Origin: Escherichia phage vB_EcoM_G2133
DNA length: 64,000 nt
Strand: one strand, 5' to 3'
Sequence record: MK327928.1
Shown: piece after piece, positions 23,551 to 31,845 of the stretch
Layout of the letters: each line of letters opens with the position of its first letter
Numbering within the stretch: position 1 is the first letter of the stretch
Notes under the pieces: generated by a model
Seen by the model: only the letters and a program-made list of their open reading frames with translations
Told to the model about the DNA's origin: nothing
Database searches by the model: none
Position numbers and translations under genes: made by a program

Positions 23551-24645
23551 ATGGCAATTGTTAAAGAAATAACTGCTGATTTAATTAAAAAGTCCGGTGA
23601 GAAAATTTCAGCCGGACAGAGTACTAAATCAGAAGTAGGAACTAAAACATACACAGCCCAGTTTCCAACTGGGCGTGCTAGTGGTAATGACACTACAGGG
23701 GACTTCCAGGTAACAGATCTATATAAGAATGGATTATTATTTACTGCATACAATATGTCATCTAGGGATTCTGGAAGTCTTAGATCGATGAGATCTAACT
23801 ACTCTTCTTCATCTTCGAGTATTTTACGTACAGCCAGAAACACTATCAGTAATACAGTATCAAAACTGTCAAATGGATTAATATCAGATAATAATTCAGG
23901 AACAATAAGTAAAGCCCCTGTTGCAAATATTCTTTTACCAAGATCTAAATCCGATGTTGATACATCATCACATAGATTTAATGATGTTCAAGAAAGTCTT
24001 ATCAGCAGAGGCGGAGGTACTGCTACTGGTGTGCTAAGTAATATTGCTTCAACTGCAGTATTTGGAGCACTGGAAAGTATAACACAAGGTATAATGGCTG
24101 ATAATAATGAACAAATATACACTACGGCTCGAAGTATGTATGGTGGTGCTGAAAATAGAACTAAAGTGTTTACTTGGGATTTGACTCCACGTTCAACAGA
24201 AGATTTAATGGCTATTATTAATATCTATCAATATTTTAACTATTTTTCTTATGGTGAAACTGGTAAATCTCAATATGCTGCTGAAATAAAGGGGTATTTA
24301 GATGATTGGTATCGTTCTACGTTAATTGAACCTTTATCTCCGGAAGACGCAGCTAAAAATAAAACACTATTTGAGAAAATGACATCGAGTTTAACTAACG
24401 TTCTAGTAGTTTCAAACCCGACAATTTGGATGGTGAAAAACTTTGGTGCAACATCTAAGTTTGATGGAAAAACGGAAATATTTGGCCCATGCCAAATACA
24501 AAGCATCAGATTTGATAAAACACCTAATGGTAACTTTAACGGATTAGCTATTGCTCCAAACCTCCCTAGTACATTTACTCTTGAGATTACTATGAGAGAA
24601 ATTATCACGTTAAACCGTGCTTCTTTATATGCGGGGACTTTTTAA
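23551..24645 (+). CDS. 48: baseplate tail tube cap
   Basis: 364 aa as in T4 gp48. Confidence 0.92.
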   Translation: MAIVKEITADLIKKSGEKISAGQSTKSEVGTKTYTAQFPTGRASGNDTTGDFQVTDLYKNGLLFTAYNMSSRDSGSLRSMRSNYSSSSSSILRTARNTISNTVSKLSNGLISDNNSGTISKAPVANILLPRSKSDVDTSSHRFNDVQESLISRGGGTATGVLSNIASTAVFGALESITQGIMADNNEQIYTTARSMYGGAENRTKVFTWDLTPRSTEDLMAIINIYQYFNYFSYGETGKSQYAAEIKGYLDDWYRSTLIEPLSPEDAAKNKTLFEKMTSSLTNVLVVSNPTIWMVKNFGATSKFDGKTEIFGPCQIQSIRFDKTPNGNFNGLAIAPNLPSTFTLEITMREIITLNRASLYAGTF

Positions 24646-25610
24646 TGTATTCTTTAGAGGAATTTAATAATCAAGCAATAAACGCAGATTTCCAACGTAA
24701 TAATATGTTTAGCTGCGTTTTTGCGACAACTCCATCAACTAAAAGCTCTTCGTTGATAAGTTCAATTAGCAACTTTTCTTATAATAACTTGGGCCTAAAT
24801 TCAGATTGGTTAGGATTGACTCAAGGTGATATTAATCAGGGAATTACCACGCTAATTACTGCTGGCACACAAAAACTGATAAGAAAATCAGGGGTTAGTA
24901 AATATCTTATTGGTGCCATGAGTCAACGTACAGTTCAAAGTTTATTAGGCTCATTTACAGTTGGTACATATTTAATTGACTTCTTTAACATGGCATATAA
25001 CTCATCTGGATTGATGATATACTCTGTAAAAATGCCAGAGAATAGATTATCCTATGAAACTGACTGGAACTACAATTCTCCTAATATTCGCATAACCGGG
25101 AGAGAATTAGACCCTTTGGTTATTTCATTTAGAATGGATTCAGAAGCTTGTAACTATCGTGCAATGCAAGACTGGGTTAACTCCGTTCAAGACCCAGTAA
25201 CTGGATTACGCGCTTTGCCACAGGATGTCGAGGCAGATATTCAGGTTAATCTTCATTCTCGTAATGGATTGCCTCATACTGCGGTGATGTTCACTGGATG
25301 CATTCCAATATCAGTGAGCGCTCCTGAGTTATCATATGATGGAGATAACCAAATAACTACATTTGACGTTACTTTTGCGTATAGAGTGATGCAGGCTGGA
25401 GCAGTTGATAGGCAAGCTGCGCTTGAATGGCTTGAATCTGCTGCTATAAATGGTATTCAAAGCGTTCTCGGAAATAGTGGAGGTGTTACTGGACTATCTA
25501 ATTCGCTTTCACGACTCAGTAGATTAGGGGGAACTGCAGGAAGCATTTCAAACATTAATACTATGACAGGAATTGTCAATTCGCAAAGTAAAATATTAGG
25601 AGCAATATAA
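24645..25610 (+). CDS. 54: baseplate tail tube initiator
   Basis: 321 aa; synteny. Confidence 0.92.
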   Translation: MYSLEEFNNQAINADFQRNNMFSCVFATTPSTKSSSLISSISNFSYNNLGLNSDWLGLTQGDINQGITTLITAGTQKLIRKSGVSKYLIGAMSQRTVQSLLGSFTVGTYLIDFFNMAYNSSGLMIYSVKMPENRLSYETDWNYNSPNIRITGRELDPLVISFRMDSEACNYRAMQDWVNSVQDPVTGLRALPQDVEADIQVNLHSRNGLPHTAVMFTGCIPISVSAPELSYDGDNQITTFDVTFAYRVMQAGAVDRQAALEWLESAAINGIQSVLGNSGGVTGLSNSLSRLSRLGGTAGSISNINTMTGIVNSQSKILGAI

Positions 25611-25614
25611 CAAT

Positions 25615-25632
25615 GGGGACCTTTCGGTCCCC
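25615..25632. terminator. bidirectional terminator between convergent gene 54 and minus-strand alt block
   Basis: GGGGACC-tttc-GGTCCCC hairpin followed by T-rich run. Confidence 0.65.
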
Positions 25633-25638
25633 ATATTT

Positions 25639-25929
25639 TTATTTACGGAATGAAATAAAAGCAGCAACTGAAGCAACTAAACTGTCTTCAATATAAACCT
25701 CAATTTTTACCGGAGCTTCTGACTCAAATTTACCTGTTACTACACCTTGGAAAATACTTTCAGTCTGTTCTGGCTTTGAAAAATTTTCAGAAGGAAAAAT
25801 TCCGAACTTTTTATCTGTTCCAAAAATTTTGATAAATTCATCGTAAACTGCTTCATTAAAAGCATTATCAGCAGGAATAACGCCTTCAACTACAAGTTCT
25901 TGACCTAAAAAGCGCAAAGAAGATTTCAT
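25639..25929 (-). CDS. hypothetical protein, early-promoter driven
   Basis: 96 aa ORF with SD GAGG; preceded by a sigma70-like early promoter (repeat copy 1). Confidence 0.6.
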   Translation of the reverse strand: MKSSLRFLGQELVVEGVIPADNAFNEAVYDEFIKIFGTDKKFGIFPSENFSKPEQTESIFQGVVTGKFESEAPVKIEVYIEDSLVASVAAFISFRK

Positions 25930-25960: not shown

Positions 25961-25990
25961 ACTATAACACAACACGAGGGACTTGTAAAC
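25961..25990 (-). promoter_or_regulatory. T4 early-type promoter (-35 GTTTAC, 18-nt spacer, -10 TATAGT), copy 1 of 53-bp cassette 25938..25990
   Basis: -35 box overlaps alt-paralog stop codon; 51 of 53 nt identical with 41127..41179. Confidence 0.5.
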
Positions 25991-28047
25991 TACATTTTGA
26001 ACTTTTTAGACATTCCGTTGATGTTAACCAAAGAAGCCAAGATTTGAGAAACTTCGTTTTCCTCTTCTTTTGATTCTTCTACAAGGAATTGATTAAATCC
26101 AGCCATTGGACGAACTTCACCAGTTTCCATTAGATGGTCGCCATCATATACCGATTCCTCTAATTGTTCAGAAGGAGGAACGATTGTACCTTCTATTAGA
26201 TACTTGTTATAAGCAGTTTCTTTCATAAAGTACGTACTTACTTTATTAATCTTCAGTAAAATTCCGCGCGGTAGAATAACTTCAGCTTCTGATGGAAATC
26301 CTGATAAATGACCTGGAACGATAACTTTGATTCGCTCAGCTCCTTTAATTACCATACCCACGCTAGTTTCAGCATCTTCATTAGCATATGTAGAATGACT
26401 ACCCATATGCATCAAATCTTCTGCATCAACGGAACCTTCTCCTTCACCAGAAAATACTGCGCCGGAATCATCTAGAGCCATATAGTTTTTACCATGCTCA
26501 CCGAAGATATTTGGTTTAAGCGATGTGGATACGAAGTTCTTGAAATAGAACATTTTATTTTCAATGTTATGACGCAAAGTTTTAAAGGTAACTTCTTGCC
26601 CACGATAAAGAGTAGTTCCTGGAGGAAGAACAGAACCTTTAGCAAATGCAGAATCCAACGTCTCGATGTGTTTAATAGCTCGTTCCATATATTCTTCACG
26701 GGTAGAATCAGGTTTACCTAAAAGGAACGAGTTCATTTCAACATATGAATCTGCACAATAATCTTCAATTACATCAGATTCAGCTTGAGTTAATCCTTTT
26801 GGAGTTACTTCGGTGCTTGCGTATTCATATGCCTGAGCGGCAGATTCATTAATCAATTTATAAATGCCATTCATTACAAATTGAATAATAGCTGTCTTTT
26901 CATCTGGCGTAGCTTTAGAACCTTTAACCAAATCATTGATAATTTTCTTAATAACATCAAAGCTATTAGAAATATTAATGTCAGCAAGATCGCTTAAAAT
27001 TTTATCAGTTTTATAATCAAAGAATTCTTTATTCTTTAAATATTCTTGAGAACCTTGATATGTTATATCGCTCTGCAACTTGATAGATGGATCACGTAAA
27101 CGTGCATGGGCTAATGCAATATGATTTCGGAAGTTTTCTAGTTCGTAATCGCTAGATTTAAAACGAGAAGCACTTCTCATACCACCAATAGCTCCTTTGC
27201 TGAAGTTTGAACCAATCTGAATAACGCCAGAGTTCATTGGTCCTTCTGCTTTATACACCGGAACTTTAAATTCAAACTCTTGATATTTCTTAGCAGCGAA
27301 GCTATCACCCTGAAGTGAAGCATCGACAGTAGAATATTGAGCTTGTGCTGCTAATCGACGACTAATTTTAGTTTTCTGAATAACAGCTTGATCAGTGCGC
27401 TTATCATTTTCTAAAGCAATAGAAGCAGCAACAGCGACAGCTTTAGGAACAGCATTACCTGTTTTAACGTCTACATAAACATCACCAACCTTTGATTCAA
27501 CTTTTGTGAATAACTCAGTTGAAATAGGAGGTACACCTGGAATGTCTTCTAAATTGGCATTTTTACGGTAAACCATAATATATGCATATTTCTTATCAAA
27601 GTCCCAGATTTCCTTTAAAAGAACATATCGACCTGCTCCTTTAGTACGTACTAAACGGTCAGCAATAACTTGCATTTGACGAGCAGCGCCATTTGTTTTA
27701 CTCTTTAGTACGCGAAATAAGCATGCATCAATTTTATACTGTTTCATTGTTTGAAGAGCAGTATCAAAAACAGCATTAATGACGCCAATTGGATTTCCAC
27801 CCAAGTTTTTAAGCTTAACTAACGATAATTTCTCGTTGACACCTATCATTACGATATGCATCATTTTATCGCCTGGCTTAACGTTTTTATTCGTATCACC
27901 GCCAGAGGTGTATGTACAAAATCTAAATCCAGGAAGCACGCTTTCTTCACCGGCTTGAATAGCAAAAATTTGTGGTATTTTATGCTTAGGATTTAAGTTA
28001 ACAACCGGCGCCGAAGCGCCGTCAAATAATTCTGTAATAAGTTCCAT
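25990..28047 (-). CDS. Alt-like ADP-ribosyltransferase paralog (full length)
   Basis: 685 aa; N-terminal ~190 aa highly similar to adjacent alt; ART motifs Y-R482-GQ, S507-T-S, E587-A-E589; start 3 nt after alt stop. Confidence 0.85.
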   Translation of the reverse strand: MELITELFDGASAPVVNLNPKHKIPQIFAIQAGEESVLPGFRFCTYTSGGDTNKNVKPGDKMMHIVMIGVNEKLSLVKLKNLGGNPIGVINAVFDTALQTMKQYKIDACLFRVLKSKTNGAARQMQVIADRLVRTKGAGRYVLLKEIWDFDKKYAYIMVYRKNANLEDIPGVPPISTELFTKVESKVGDVYVDVKTGNAVPKAVAVAASIALENDKRTDQAVIQKTKISRRLAAQAQYSTVDASLQGDSFAAKKYQEFEFKVPVYKAEGPMNSGVIQIGSNFSKGAIGGMRSASRFKSSDYELENFRNHIALAHARLRDPSIKLQSDITYQGSQEYLKNKEFFDYKTDKILSDLADINISNSFDVIKKIINDLVKGSKATPDEKTAIIQFVMNGIYKLINESAAQAYEYASTEVTPKGLTQAESDVIEDYCADSYVEMNSFLLGKPDSTREEYMERAIKHIETLDSAFAKGSVLPPGTTLYRGQEVTFKTLRHNIENKMFYFKNFVSTSLKPNIFGEHGKNYMALDDSGAVFSGEGEGSVDAEDLMHMGSHSTYANEDAETSVGMVIKGAERIKVIVPGHLSGFPSEAEVILPRGILLKINKVSTYFMKETAYNKYLIEGTIVPPSEQLEESVYDGDHLMETGEVRPMAGFNQFLVEESKEEENEVSQILASLVNINGMSKKFKM

Positions 28048-28050
28048 GAT

Positions 28051-30144
28051 TTATCCTTGAACGAACTTGTAAGGCATGTTTGTAATATCTATGCAAGACG
28101 CAATAATTCCAAGAGATGATTCTACTTTCTGTTTAACGTTTGATGAAACAAATGATGCAAAGTCAACTCTGTCTTCTATTTCAATATCACCTGTCATTGC
28201 AACCAATTCACCAGTTTCCATTAAATGGTCTCCATCATAGATTACCGATTCGGTGAGCTCTTCCGTGGTCATAACTTCAGCTTGAATGAGTTTTGTATTA
28301 TTAGATGTTGTTCCGTCATTATTAGAAGCATCAGTTATTTTATTAACTTTGACCATCAATCCACGCGGTAGAATAACTTCAGCTTCTGTTGCTATTCCGA
28401 GACTTCCTGGATATACAACATTAACTTTATGAGCTCCATCAATTGCCCATCCTATTTGAACTTTAACGTATTCAGGATTTTCTTTATACGCTCTTATTTC
28501 GTTTGGATTAATAGTTATTCCTTCTTCATTTTTATCAACTGTTAATTCATTGCGAGCTTCTGGTTCTAAAAGACCAATACCAGCATGTGTAATTCCAAAA
28601 CGTCCAAAAATGATAGGAGTTAAAGAAGTAGATACAAAATTTCTGAAGTAGAACACTTTATTTTTAACTAACGCTTCATATATAGGAGCAGTCATACTTT
28701 GAGCACGATAAACTGTAATGCCTTCTGGTATACGGTCACCATTTTCAAAAGCTGAATCTAAGTTATTTATAGCAGATTCAATTTCTTTTTCACTCATTAC
28801 ATCATATCGTTCTGGATTGTAACGACCTAAAAGAAGATTATTGATGTCAGTATATCCTGAACCGCAATATTCTCTAATGCCACGCTTTTGTGATGGAGTA
28901 TATTTAGAACCATCGCGGGCAATAGTAATATCAATCATTGGACCAGCACCAATTCCAGAAAAACTGTAAATCATTCGTTTGAGGAATTTAGTTTTTGCTG
29001 CGTTCCAGGAATTTTTAGTTATTTCTTCCCAGACTTCATCTGGTTGTCCTTTACGATTTTTATTATGATTAGCAAGCCATTTATCTTTATAATCTTCAAA
29101 GAATTGATTTACAGCTGCTGCGTATTTCTCTAAACATTTTATTGAAGTAGTTGGTTCATTTTTAATTGCATTAAAAATTACTTCTTTAATTTTTTCTGAA
29201 ACTTCACCGACTTGACTCATTGGAAAGAATTTATAATCATAGTGAAGTTCATCTGCCGTTCCTTCAGCAATAATTTTTGCTGCCTTTGTTTTAGAAGCTA
29301 ATGAATTAATTCCAATTTTCATTTCTTCTGCTTCGGGAATTAAAGGAGCGGTAGCAGGTTTATTGAAATTAGCTGCGGTAGATTCATACTTCTGGAATAA
29401 TTCACTTTCAAATCTAGAAGATTCCAACGACTGACTTTGCGCAATTGCTCTACGTGAAATTTTAACTTTAACGATTACCGCTTGGTCAGAACGTTTATCA
29501 TTTTCTTGCGCAATAGATGCTGCAATTGCCTCATTTTTAGTTACTTGGGCTCCAGTATCTTTATTGATATAAACATCACCGACTTTCGATTCAACTTTAG
29601 TAAAGAGCTCGGTACTAATTTCCGGAACTCCTGGAATGTCTTCTAATGATACATTTTTGCGATGTATAAGAATATATGCATACTTTTTATCATAATCCCA
29701 GAGTTCCTTAAGAAGGACGTATCTGCCACCTGAACGACTACGGATAAGTCTATCAGCAATAAGTTGAATTTGACGAGCTTGACCAGCAGTTTTAGACTTA
29801 AGAATACGGAGCATACATGCATCAATTTTATACTGACGCATCGTCTGCATCGCAACAGTAAAAACTGAATTGATGTAATTAATTGGGCTTGGACCGAGAC
29901 CCTTTAATTTAGCAATTGAACCTTTAGCAGTTAATGTAAAAGGAACAATATGCATCATTTTATCGCCCATTTTTAAATCGCGATTAGTATCACCTCCAGA
30001 TGTATAGGTACATAAACGAAAACCTGGTTGTTCAATTGCGTCATCAACATGAACTGAAAAAATTTGCGGTATTTTCTTCTTTGGATTTAAGTTTGTAATC
30101 GGAAGAGTAGTATCTTCGTCAAATAATTCTGTAATGAGTTCCAT
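28051..30144 (-). CDS. alt: Alt ADP-ribosyltransferase (capsid-packaged)
   Basis: track ORF 28051..30147 begins MM, second Met used; MELITELFDEDTTLPITNL...; R-S-E ART motifs (YRAQ, STS, EAEVILPRG). Confidence 0.88.
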   Translation of the reverse strand: MELITELFDEDTTLPITNLNPKKKIPQIFSVHVDDAIEQPGFRLCTYTSGGDTNRDLKMGDKMMHIVPFTLTAKGSIAKLKGLGPSPINYINSVFTVAMQTMRQYKIDACMLRILKSKTAGQARQIQLIADRLIRSRSGGRYVLLKELWDYDKKYAYILIHRKNVSLEDIPGVPEISTELFTKVESKVGDVYINKDTGAQVTKNEAIAASIAQENDKRSDQAVIVKVKISRRAIAQSQSLESSRFESELFQKYESTAANFNKPATAPLIPEAEEMKIGINSLASKTKAAKIIAEGTADELHYDYKFFPMSQVGEVSEKIKEVIFNAIKNEPTTSIKCLEKYAAAVNQFFEDYKDKWLANHNKNRKGQPDEVWEEITKNSWNAAKTKFLKRMIYSFSGIGAGPMIDITIARDGSKYTPSQKRGIREYCGSGYTDINNLLLGRYNPERYDVMSEKEIESAINNLDSAFENGDRIPEGITVYRAQSMTAPIYEALVKNKVFYFRNFVSTSLTPIIFGRFGITHAGIGLLEPEARNELTVDKNEEGITINPNEIRAYKENPEYVKVQIGWAIDGAHKVNVVYPGSLGIATEAEVILPRGLMVKVNKITDASNNDGTTSNNTKLIQAEVMTTEELTESVIYDGDHLMETGELVAMTGDIEIEDRVDFASFVSSNVKQKVESSLGIIASCIDITNMPYKFVQG

Positions 30145-30167
30145 CATATCCTCTCTAGTGTTTATTC

Positions 30168-30175
30168 TATTTATA
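30168..30175 (-). promoter_or_regulatory. late promoter box TATAAATA for alt
   Basis: reverse complement of TATTTATA about 20 nt upstream of alt ATG, after hairpin 30181..30198. Confidence 0.55.
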
Positions 30176-30196
30176 AAATTAAAGGCCCGAAGGCCT

Positions 30197-30385
30197 TTAA
30201 TAATCTATTGGTAAGAGAGTACGATATATTTCAAACTTTGGACCTTTTTCATAGGTATCAAATGTTTCTGTGAATTTATTATAAGCATATGCATCTATAA
30301 ATTCAATCATAATTTGTGATACAGAAGTAGAAACATCTCCACCTTCTTTTTGAGCCACGACAATTGTTTCTAAGTAAGCTTTCAT
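30197..30385 (-). CDS. hypothetical small protein coupled to DNA ligase
   Basis: 62 aa; ATG overlaps gene 30 stop (ATGA); followed by hairpin AAAGGCC-cgaa-GGCCTTT. Confidence 0.5.
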   Translation of the reverse strand: MKAYLETIVVAQKEGGDVSTSVSQIMIEFIDAYAYNKFTETFDTYEKGPKFEIYRTLLPIDY

Positions 30386-31845
30386 AGACCAGTTACCTCA
30401 TGAAAATCACCAAATACATCCTCGAATGTATTAGCTTTAGTTTTATCTTCACGCAAACGAATCGCAATCGGAAGAAATAATTTAACGTAATCAGTGCGGC
30501 CATCAGATTTTAACCAACCGTTGCATTCGCACTCTAGAATTTTTCCAATATAATAATTTTGGTTTTCCATAATGCGAGTACGGTCAAGTTCATGCGATTT
30601 TACACCGGCTTTATCTTTTAAGCCTGAACCAGCATTTACTTTAATTTTTCCACACTCTGATTCAAGAATGAAACCACCTGCTTTAGTAGGGTCTTTACGG
30701 TGAGGATAAATTCCTACAATTTTTAAATCAACATCAATTACTTCTTTAAATTTATAAAGATTTTTTGAACGAGCATTTTCCCATAATCCATCGATATTTT
30801 TGAGAATAATACCTTCAAGACCTTGGTCAATATACTTTTTGTAAATTACCTTAGCTTCATCTAGGTTATTTACTACTTGGTTTTCAATTAAAATTACTTT
30901 ATCATAGCCTGATGTCATTTGTTCTAGTTTAGAAAAACGTACATCATATTTTAAACGAAATGCTGGAAGACCATATATTTCTACTAATGGAACATAATCC
31001 CAGACCTGAAACTTCATGCATTGTGCTTCTTTTTCAGAAATGGTTCCCTTTAAAGATTTATTGGCGATGCCATTAGATGCAGTACGTGATTCAGCTACTT
31101 CGGCGAATTCTTTAGCTTTACTAATTTCAGGATAAGCATCAAAAAGAAAATCTAGGCCTTCTGGTTCCTTTTCAACTTGCTCATGGTATACCAATTCGCC
31201 ATCAATTAACACACCTTCTGGATGAATCTGGCGGGCTTCAGCAGTCATTTTGATTAACTCTTCCTTAAGAAGATCTAATCCTAGATATTCATTGCCAGCT
31301 CGTGATAAAAGACGAACATCATCTAATTCATCACCTCTGACTTCGGCAAAGCACCGAGCTCCATCAGCTTTTAACTGGGCAAAGGCTGGAAATTTGATAT
31401 TCTTATTAATGCCTTTTTCATCATAAGAACTTGCAAGCATTTGAGGTTGTTCAGGAATTAAACCTGGCCAAACTTTGTTCGCAATAGATACTGAAGCGCC
31501 ACATTCAAGGTCTCGCATCATCACTCGACGCAAAACTTCAACATCATCTTTTTTACCATCGGTGATGTATCCAATTAATTCCTCAATCGCCGCATTTCCA
31601 GTCAATTTCCGAGTAGCTAACGTGAATTCAATGAAGTCAAGCATATCGGTAAGAGTCAACATTCCAAAACTCTGGGTAGCAATACCAGGTTTAGGCCATT
31701 TCTTGATATAATACTGTAACCCACGAGAATAAGTCAGACGATATACTCGTTTAAGCAATTCATTATCTTTATTCTTTTCAAGAATTGCTTGCTTCTGCTT
31801 AGTTGAACCAATAGATGCTATTTCGTTCAGAATTTTAAGAATCAT
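30382..31845 (-). CDS. 30: ATP-dependent DNA ligase
   Basis: 487 aa as in T4 DNA ligase; adenylation motif KADGAR. Confidence 0.95.
   Translation of the reverse strand: MILKILNEIASIGSTKQKQAILEKNKDNELLKRVYRLTYSRGLQYYIKKWPKPGIATQSFGMLTLTDMLDFIEFTLATRKLTGNAAIEELIGYITDGKKDDVEVLRRVMMRDLECGASVSIANKVWPGLIPEQPQMLASSYDEKGINKNIKFPAFAQLKADGARCFAEVRGDELDDVRLLSRAGNEYLGLDLLKEELIKMTAEARQIHPEGVLIDGELVYHEQVEKEPEGLDFLFDAYPEISKAKEFAEVAESRTASNGIANKSLKGTISEKEAQCMKFQVWDYVPLVEIYGLPAFRLKYDVRFSKLEQMTSGYDKVILIENQVVNNLDEAKVIYKKYIDQGLEGIILKNIDGLWENARSKNLYKFKEVIDVDLKIVGIYPHRKDPTKAGGFILESECGKIKVNAGSGLKDKAGVKSHELDRTRIMENQNYYIGKILECECNGWLKSDGRTDYVKLFLPIAIRLREDKTKANTFEDVFGDFHEVTGL

Follow-up and report, generated by a model that had tools for sequence, protein, structure and literature searches.

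Two tandem alt-type genes in phage vB_EcoM_G2133

We analyzed a 64,000-nt stretch of the genome of Escherichia phage vB_EcoM_G2133 (MK327928.1; the whole stretch is called the window below) for two tandem genes of the Alt type, a family of phage ADP-ribosyltransferases (ARTs). The segment comes from a Tequatrovirus (T4-like) phage, and the pair, named AltA and AltB here, sits between gene 30/alt.1 and alt.-3/gene 54. AltA (28051..30147, minus strand) is the alt ortholog in its T2-type allele, with 698 aa from the first ATG or 697 aa from the ATG at 30144. AltB (25990..28047, minus strand) encodes 685 aa and is the full-length form of the gene called alt.-2 in RB14 and T6 and altb in JS10. The AltA stop codon TAA occupies 28053-28051 and the AltB ATG 28047-28045, leaving a minus-strand spacer of 3 nt (28048-28050); a Shine-Dalgarno sequence for AltB, AAGGA (28054..28058, minus strand), lies within the last AltA codons. 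The start of alt is a double ATG (MMELITE; listed at 30144-30149) in this phage and in T4 alike, and database records use the second one, which explains the one-residue numbering offsets found in the literature (E577 vs. E576; a 7- vs. a 6-residue propeptide).

An original prediction, made by reading the sequence without database searches, had described the two minus-strand open reading frames (ORFs) as paralogs with near-identical N-termini and divergent centers, the downstream copy starting 3 nt after the alt stop codon. The coordinates, the 3-nt gap and the paralogy were all confirmed: the BLASTP alignment of the two proteins runs from end to end, with 719 columns and 41% identity (E 4e-157), far beyond chance. 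"Near-identical" was too strong for the first ∼190 residues, which are 68% identical (67% over residues 1-235). The strong central divergence was borne out, with about 12-25% identity in 40-column blocks and 18% over AltB residues 236-415. The prediction further held that the central ∼200 residues usually govern target choice; this is an assumption, and the insert between the STS and ExE motifs of the ART domain is equally divergent (15% identity). At the DNA level, the two genes share at most 31 nt at 94% identity and 120 nt at 73%. For want of any longer shared stretch, we rejected a recent gene conversion between the N-terminal parts.

ART domain and predicted structure

Both proteins matched the Pfam profile PF03496 (ADPrib_exo_Tox; curated cut-off 23.4 bits), AltA with 129.9 bits and AltB with 71.8 bits (E 6e-20). 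They also matched phrog_802 ("Alt-like RNA polymerase ADP-ribosyltransferase") over their full length, with E 1.4e-273 for AltA (1-697) and E 3.2e-256 for AltB (1-685). The complete catalytic motif set that had been read from the letters is present in each paralog: YRAQ (480-483), FVSTS (504-508) and EAEVILPRG (588-596) in AltA, and YRGQ (481-484), FVSTS (505-509) and EAEVILPRG (587-595) in AltB. R481 of AltA aligns with R295 of iota-toxin Ia. A family alignment of 21 sequences, covering both paralogs and two genera, showed R482, S507, S509, E587 and E589 of AltB to be invariant and T508 nearly so (≥90%). It was reported previously that the second Glu of the ExE motif is needed for activity of T4 Alt, as judged from an E577A mutant (PMC11404850), and that an E-x-E motif within the R-S-E clade typically marks protein ARTs with arginine specificity (PMC8120803).

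The AlphaFold2 model of AltB (mean predicted local distance difference test score, pLDDT, 76.3) has four parts: an alpha/beta N-terminal domain (about residues 15-215), a helical region (about 250-470), an ART core (about 480-622) carrying R482, S507-T508-S509 and E587-A-E589, and a tail (632-685) that is predicted to be disordered, with disorder starting from residue 629. A propeptide of residues 1-6, ending at ITE-6, and a cleavage motif LEE-631 (L629-E630-E631, cut before S632) are predicted as well. Foldseek matched the C-terminal half of this predicted model to the toxins Vis, Certhrax, C3bot, CDTa, VIP2 and iota with a probability of 1.00, and the target-normalized template-modeling scores (TM-scores) against the single-domain toxins Vis and C3bot were 0.55-0.69. 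By profile, motif order and predicted fold AltB is a member of the R-S-E clade, and NAD-dependent transfer activity is predicted for it.

Outside the ART domain, searches gave little. The isolated N-terminal domains and centers had no meaningful match in Pfam, no NCBIfam model matched, and no solved structure of an Alt protein was detectable by sequence in the PDB, where AltA found only weak CdtA/iota matches. A phmmer search of the AltB center against 1.84 billion representative sequences returned one repetitive 1147-aa match; it missed even the 45%-identical JS10-type center. The library evidently lacks the family, which makes this search uninformative.

The predicted fold of AltB residues 1-235 (27343-28047) had no good match in the PDB. 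The same fold recurs at the N-termini of large uncharacterized proteins of unrelated phages, some of which carry zeta-toxin, deaminase or ParB/Srx domains. Judged from these models, it is a candidate for a generic head-delivery module.

Distribution and conservation of AltB

The 4.8-kb segment that holds the pair matched 541 phage records, most at 95-99% identity, and in 343 of them a single piece spans at least 80% of its length (all record counts include GenBank/RefSeq duplicates). The AltB-specific center (residues 236-420) was found in 445 records. At ≥90% identity there were 401, T2, T6, RB14, RB18, HY01 and PST among them; the other 44, at about 45%, are Dhakavirus phages of the JS10 type, in which the genes go by the names alta and altb. 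T2, T6, RB14, RB18, HP3.1 and Dhakavirus JS10 all share the five-gene layout, including the 3-nt gap. We concluded that the tandem alt/altB pair is the majority and standard arrangement in Tequatrovirus, that it occurs also in Dhakavirus, and that T4 is the exception.

AltB is already known as a genomic feature: it is annotated in hundreds of records, and its link with T4 alt.-1/alt.-2 is given in the T4 RefSeq annotation and had been noted by 2006 (PMC1524935). RefSeq gives both genes the product name "Alt-like RNA polymerase ADP-ribosyltransferase", older records use alt.-2 or altb, and the T6 record comments on its 685-aa gene as an "apparent insertion in alt.-2; also similar to alt". The RefSeq name was transferred by homology only, and modification of RNA polymerase alpha at R265 would, for AltA and AltB, be an expectation taken from that name. 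The original prediction had presented an intact second ART as an unexplored effector, and had allowed that a standard, already characterized arrangement in close relatives would speak against it. Half of this applies, in that the arrangement is the standard and majority one in Tequatrovirus, neither new nor unusual, but not a characterized one. "Unexplored" stands: the searchable full-text literature yielded no study of alt.-2/AltB that dealt with its function or with virion proteomics, a search that cannot prove absence.

The gene is well preserved. All four Tequatrovirus AltB orthologs compared are intact ORFs of 685 aa, and the AltB protein cluster at 90% identity has 772 member sequences. 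Against T2, T6 and RB14 the synonymous divergence (dS) of AltB is 0.14-0.17 and the nonsynonymous divergence (dN) 0.004-0.008, giving dN/dS ratios of 0.025-0.044. AltB is under strong purifying selection, and on these ratios the possibility that it is a pseudogene was rejected.

T4 carries the remnants of AltB

The original prediction was correct in that T4 has one intact alt followed by small ORFs: alt (682 aa) is followed by alt.-1 (61 aa), alt.-2 (67 aa) and alt.-3. The T4 RefSeq annotation describes alt.-1/alt.-2 as an old duplication of the first part of gene alt. Nolan et al. (2006) listed them among paralogous duplications and noted a full-length alt duplicate in phage 44RR (PMC1524935). 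The alignment proposed in the original prediction gave a more specific answer. T4 alt.-1 is 94.6% identical to AltB residues 1-56 and T4 alt.-2 is 98.2% identical to AltB residues 62-116, whereas either is only 56-62% identical to T4 Alt or AltA. The two T4 ORFs are therefore remnants of AltB and not of alt.

Two lesions were located by DNA alignment. One A has been lost from an A-run near 27880, and the resulting frameshift separates alt.-1 from alt.-2. In addition, 1,699 bp (26010..27708, minus strand), corresponding to AltB codons of about 117-679, are absent from T4; the ends of this deletion are marked by the near-identical 9-mers CTAAAGAGT (27708-27700) and CTAAAAAGT (26009-26001). Of 499 records, 91 carry the T4-type deletion junction, and many of these are T4 re-sequencings. 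T4 is the derived state, having lost AltB through the frameshift and a 1.7-kb microhomology deletion.

AltA alleles and domain histories

AltA is 97-99.7% identical to its counterparts in T2, T6 and RB14. Compared with T4 Alt, the N-terminal domain (1-238) is 99% and the C-terminal tail 97% identical, while identity is 33% in the center and 67% in the ART domain, both with saturated dS (1.2-1.4). The alt locus is dimorphic, T2-type and T4-type alleles both being common; the polymorphic locus is AltA, not AltB. The AltA allele assorts independently of the presence of AltB, as in HP3.1, which combines a T4-type AltA (98%) with an intact AltB (99%).

The domains differ in history. N-terminal domains of paralogs within one genome are 66-67% identical, in Tequatrovirus and Dhakavirus alike, and orthologs across the two genera only 42-46%. 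Centers and ART domains group by ortholog between Tequatrovirus and Dhakavirus: 68% and 93% for the A pair, and 46% and 59% for the B pair. The ART domain of the T2-type AltA shows a dS of 0.48 against JS10 AltA, compared with >1.2 elsewhere in the gene. These patterns would fit a delivery domain that is bound to its lineage and carries effector cassettes open to exchange; ancient gene conversion of the N-terminal part (concerted evolution) would fit them as well.

Expression signals and proposed mode of action

A match to the T4 late-promoter consensus, TATAAATA (30168..30175, minus strand), lies 21 nt upstream of the first AltA ATG, in an arrangement identical to that in T4. The consensus has 19 matches across the window, against 8.6 expected by chance. 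A second exact TATAAATA (28764..28771, minus strand) falls within AltA and precedes the AltB start by 717 nt. It is kept in the T2, T6 and RB14 alleles and missing from those of T4 and JS10, and it could serve AltB as an internal late promoter or match only by chance. On the coding (minus) strand, the terminator scan found nothing terminator-like, either between AltA and AltB or inside them. The earlier suggestion that AltB is co-expressed from the alt late promoter is plausible on these grounds, together with the 3-nt gap and the Shine-Dalgarno sequence that AltB has of its own.

T4 Alt is a component of the prohead core; each head holds about 40 copies, which are ejected together with the DNA (PMC9026906; PMC5694885), and the protein is cleaved by gp21 at ITE-6 and LTE-619 (PMC5694885). 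The original prediction had assigned the N-terminal region a role in directing packaging; that role is not established, and what is documented for T4 Alt is this gp21 cleavage (PMC5694885). Corresponding motifs are present in both paralogs. AltA has ITE near its N-terminus and LTE-633. AltB has MELITE at 1-6 and, at the aligned C-terminal position, L629-E630-E631 followed by S632, with E6 and E631 invariant in the family alignment. Processing of AltA and AltB by gp21 is predicted from these motifs.

A single late transcript for AltA and AltB, with head packaging and trimming of both products, is the best reading of the late-promoter consensus, the lack of terminator-like sites on the coding strand, the AltB Shine-Dalgarno sequence and the gp21 motifs taken together. 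Both genes would be transcribed late as one message from the TATAAATA promoter upstream of alt, and each protein would enter the prohead core through the shared N-terminal part. There gp21 would trim it at both ends, cutting behind ITE-6 and behind the LxE motif that lies about 55-63 residues before the C-terminus. Both proteins would then be injected along with the DNA and would immediately start to work as mono-ADP-ribosyltransferases of the R-S-E (C3/VIP2/iota-like) type with specificity for arginine. The helical center of AltB (18%) and its STS-to-ExE insert (15%) are unrelated to those of AltA, and for this reason AltB most likely modifies a different set of host proteins than AltA does.

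Alternative explanations

We think it likely that AltB is a conserved and functional gene, part of an ancestral tandem pair, whose product is most likely made late, packaged in the head and injected as an arginine ART with targets that differ from those of Alt. Its paralogy, catalytic motifs, predicted fold, conservation and purifying selection, as well as the origin of the T4 remnants, are established here. Several points weigh against going further. Expression, packaging, injection, enzyme activity and targets of AltB are all steps beyond an intact, conserved gene, and the case for different targets is one of sequence divergence only. AltB scores lower than AltA against Pfam (71.8 vs. 129.9 bits), and AltB has no match by sequence in the PDB. 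Truncated AltB-type proteins of 624, 528 and 415 aa (97-99% identity) occur on long phage contigs and may be independent, recurrent losses or gene-calling artifacts. AltB is also dispensable at least on laboratory hosts, given T4 and about 90 other records without it.

The last two points could be read as signs of a redundant duplicate that is heading for loss as in T4 and is little expressed or without a distinct role. The deletion junction in T4 and the other records among the 91, the truncated proteins in the database and the fact that alt itself is non-essential in T4 (PMC9026906) would all agree with this. Such a duplicate would hardly show dN/dS ratios of 0.025-0.044 across T2, T6 and RB14 with its catalytic residues conserved, nor would it be kept in about 400 records, and a 46-59% identical ortholog in another genus implies long maintenance. 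Moreover, the AltB center is 95-100% conserved within the genus, whereas AltA varies. We regard redundancy as very unlikely.

An AltB that is functional but has a main substrate other than host protein arginine, by transferring NAD-capped RNA, modifying nucleic acid or acting chiefly as an NAD glycohydrolase, is unlikely too, though a little less so. T4 ModB links RNA chains onto host proteins (bioRxiv 10.1101/2021.06.04.446905), DNA- and RNA-modifying ARTs exist (PMC11618068), and the AltB center and STS-to-ExE insert are unlike those of any characterized enzyme. Protein arginine is favored by the E-x-E motif typical of arginine-specific protein ARTs in the R-S-E clade (PMC8120803), by the nearest folds of the predicted model, which are protein-modifying toxins, and by the nearest paralog, Alt, which modifies protein arginines. 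It is also conceivable that AltB is an active ART that stays unpackaged and acts late in the producing cell instead of being injected. Virion proteomics for AltB was not found in the searchable literature, and a packaging role of the N-terminal domain is undemonstrated even for T4 Alt; but AltB retains, in common with Alt, the two gp21 cleavage motifs and the N-terminal domain, co-transcription with the packaged paralog is likely, and a late-only enzyme would have little time to act. This appears the most improbable of the three.

A more far-reaching proposal, to which we give somewhat less than an even chance, takes the parts together: AltB would be a second head-delivered ART whose host targets do not overlap with those of Alt and possibly include a defense or stress factor. 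If it is true, the T-even arsenal is larger than the textbook "three ARTs of T4" suggests, and differences between T2/T6 and T4 in takeover or defense sensitivity would trace partly to the T4 deletion. Alt proteins would then combine a lineage-specific N-terminal domain for head delivery with effector cassettes that can be exchanged, and in unrelated myoviruses this N-terminal fold would serve to deliver other toxin-like domains. The genomic finding itself is ordinary and will not surprise a specialist. The experimental question is worthwhile and would be easy and cheap to address: the biochemistry of phage ADP-ribosylation comes almost wholly from T4, the one classic T-even phage that has lost AltB, and a second conserved, putatively injected enzyme, shared by T2, T6 and about 80% of the relatives sequenced, is a real gap that could add host targets and explain strain differences.

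Flanking genes and signals

Upstream of the pair lie the genes for DNA ligase gp30 (30382-31845) and alt.1 (30197-30385), both on the minus strand. A GC-rich hairpin followed by aatttt, aaaGGCCttcgGGCCttt (30181..30198, minus strand), begins inside the alt.1 stop codon; it was read from the sequence, is also present in T4 and was not flagged by the consensus terminator scan. It is probably a terminator of upstream early transcription.

Downstream, alt.-3 (25639..25929, minus strand) encodes a 96-aa protein of Pfam family DUF5498 that is 100% identical to T4 Alt.-3; it is a neighbor gene and not an Alt paralog. An early-type promoter-like site of its own (25961..25989, minus strand; TTTACA, a 17-nt spacer, TG and TATAGT; 10 of 12 positions match) stands directly after the AltB stop codon and would drive alt.-3. 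T4 mutants with a C-terminal extension of Alt.-3 escape the CmdTAC defense system (PMC11618068). The terminator scan placed a bidirectional hairpin terminator (25613..25634, assigned to no strand) between alt.-3 and the convergent gene 54. The genes for gp54 (24645-25610) and gp48 (23551-24645) follow on the plus strand.

Comparison with known systems

T4 Alt (gpAlt, NP_049811) is an injected NAD:arginine ADP-ribosyltransferase; its host substrates include RNA polymerase alpha (at R265) and MazF (at R84). AltA is the positional ortholog of T4 Alt, with 99% identity in the N-terminal domain and 97% in the tail, but represents a different allele in the center (33%) and ART domain (67%). AltB shares with T4 Alt the four-part architecture, the R/STS/ExE motifs, the gp21 motifs at ITE-6 and the C-terminal LxE, and the operon; it differs in sequence, with 41% identity overall and 17% in the center.

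The closest known genes are alt.-2 of RB14 and T6 and the "Alt-like RNA polymerase ADP-ribosyltransferase" genes of T2, RB18, KIT03 and other phages. AltB is the same gene as these (98-99% identity, 685 aa, same position, 3-nt gap). The altb gene of JS10 is its ortholog at 51% identity over aligned residues, 46% in the center and 59% in the ART domain. There is no meaningful difference between AltB and alt.-2/altb of the relatives, and AltB of vB_EcoM_G2133 is another member of that group. The alt.-1 and alt.-2 ORFs of T4 are the fragments left after the 1-nt and 1,699-bp deletions, whereas the gene of vB_EcoM_G2133 is intact.

C3bot, iota Ia, CDTa, VIP2, Vis and Certhrax (PF03496) share the predicted catalytic fold and the R-S-E motifs with AltB at 14-20% identity. 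These C3-like and binary toxins are secreted by bacteria and use other delivery modules, while Alt proteins are delivered from the phage head, by way of an unrelated N-terminal domain. T4 ModA and ModB resemble the Alt proteins as phage R-S-E ARTs that serve host takeover; unlike Alt, they are small early proteins that are made after infection, are not packaged and are encoded elsewhere in the genome.

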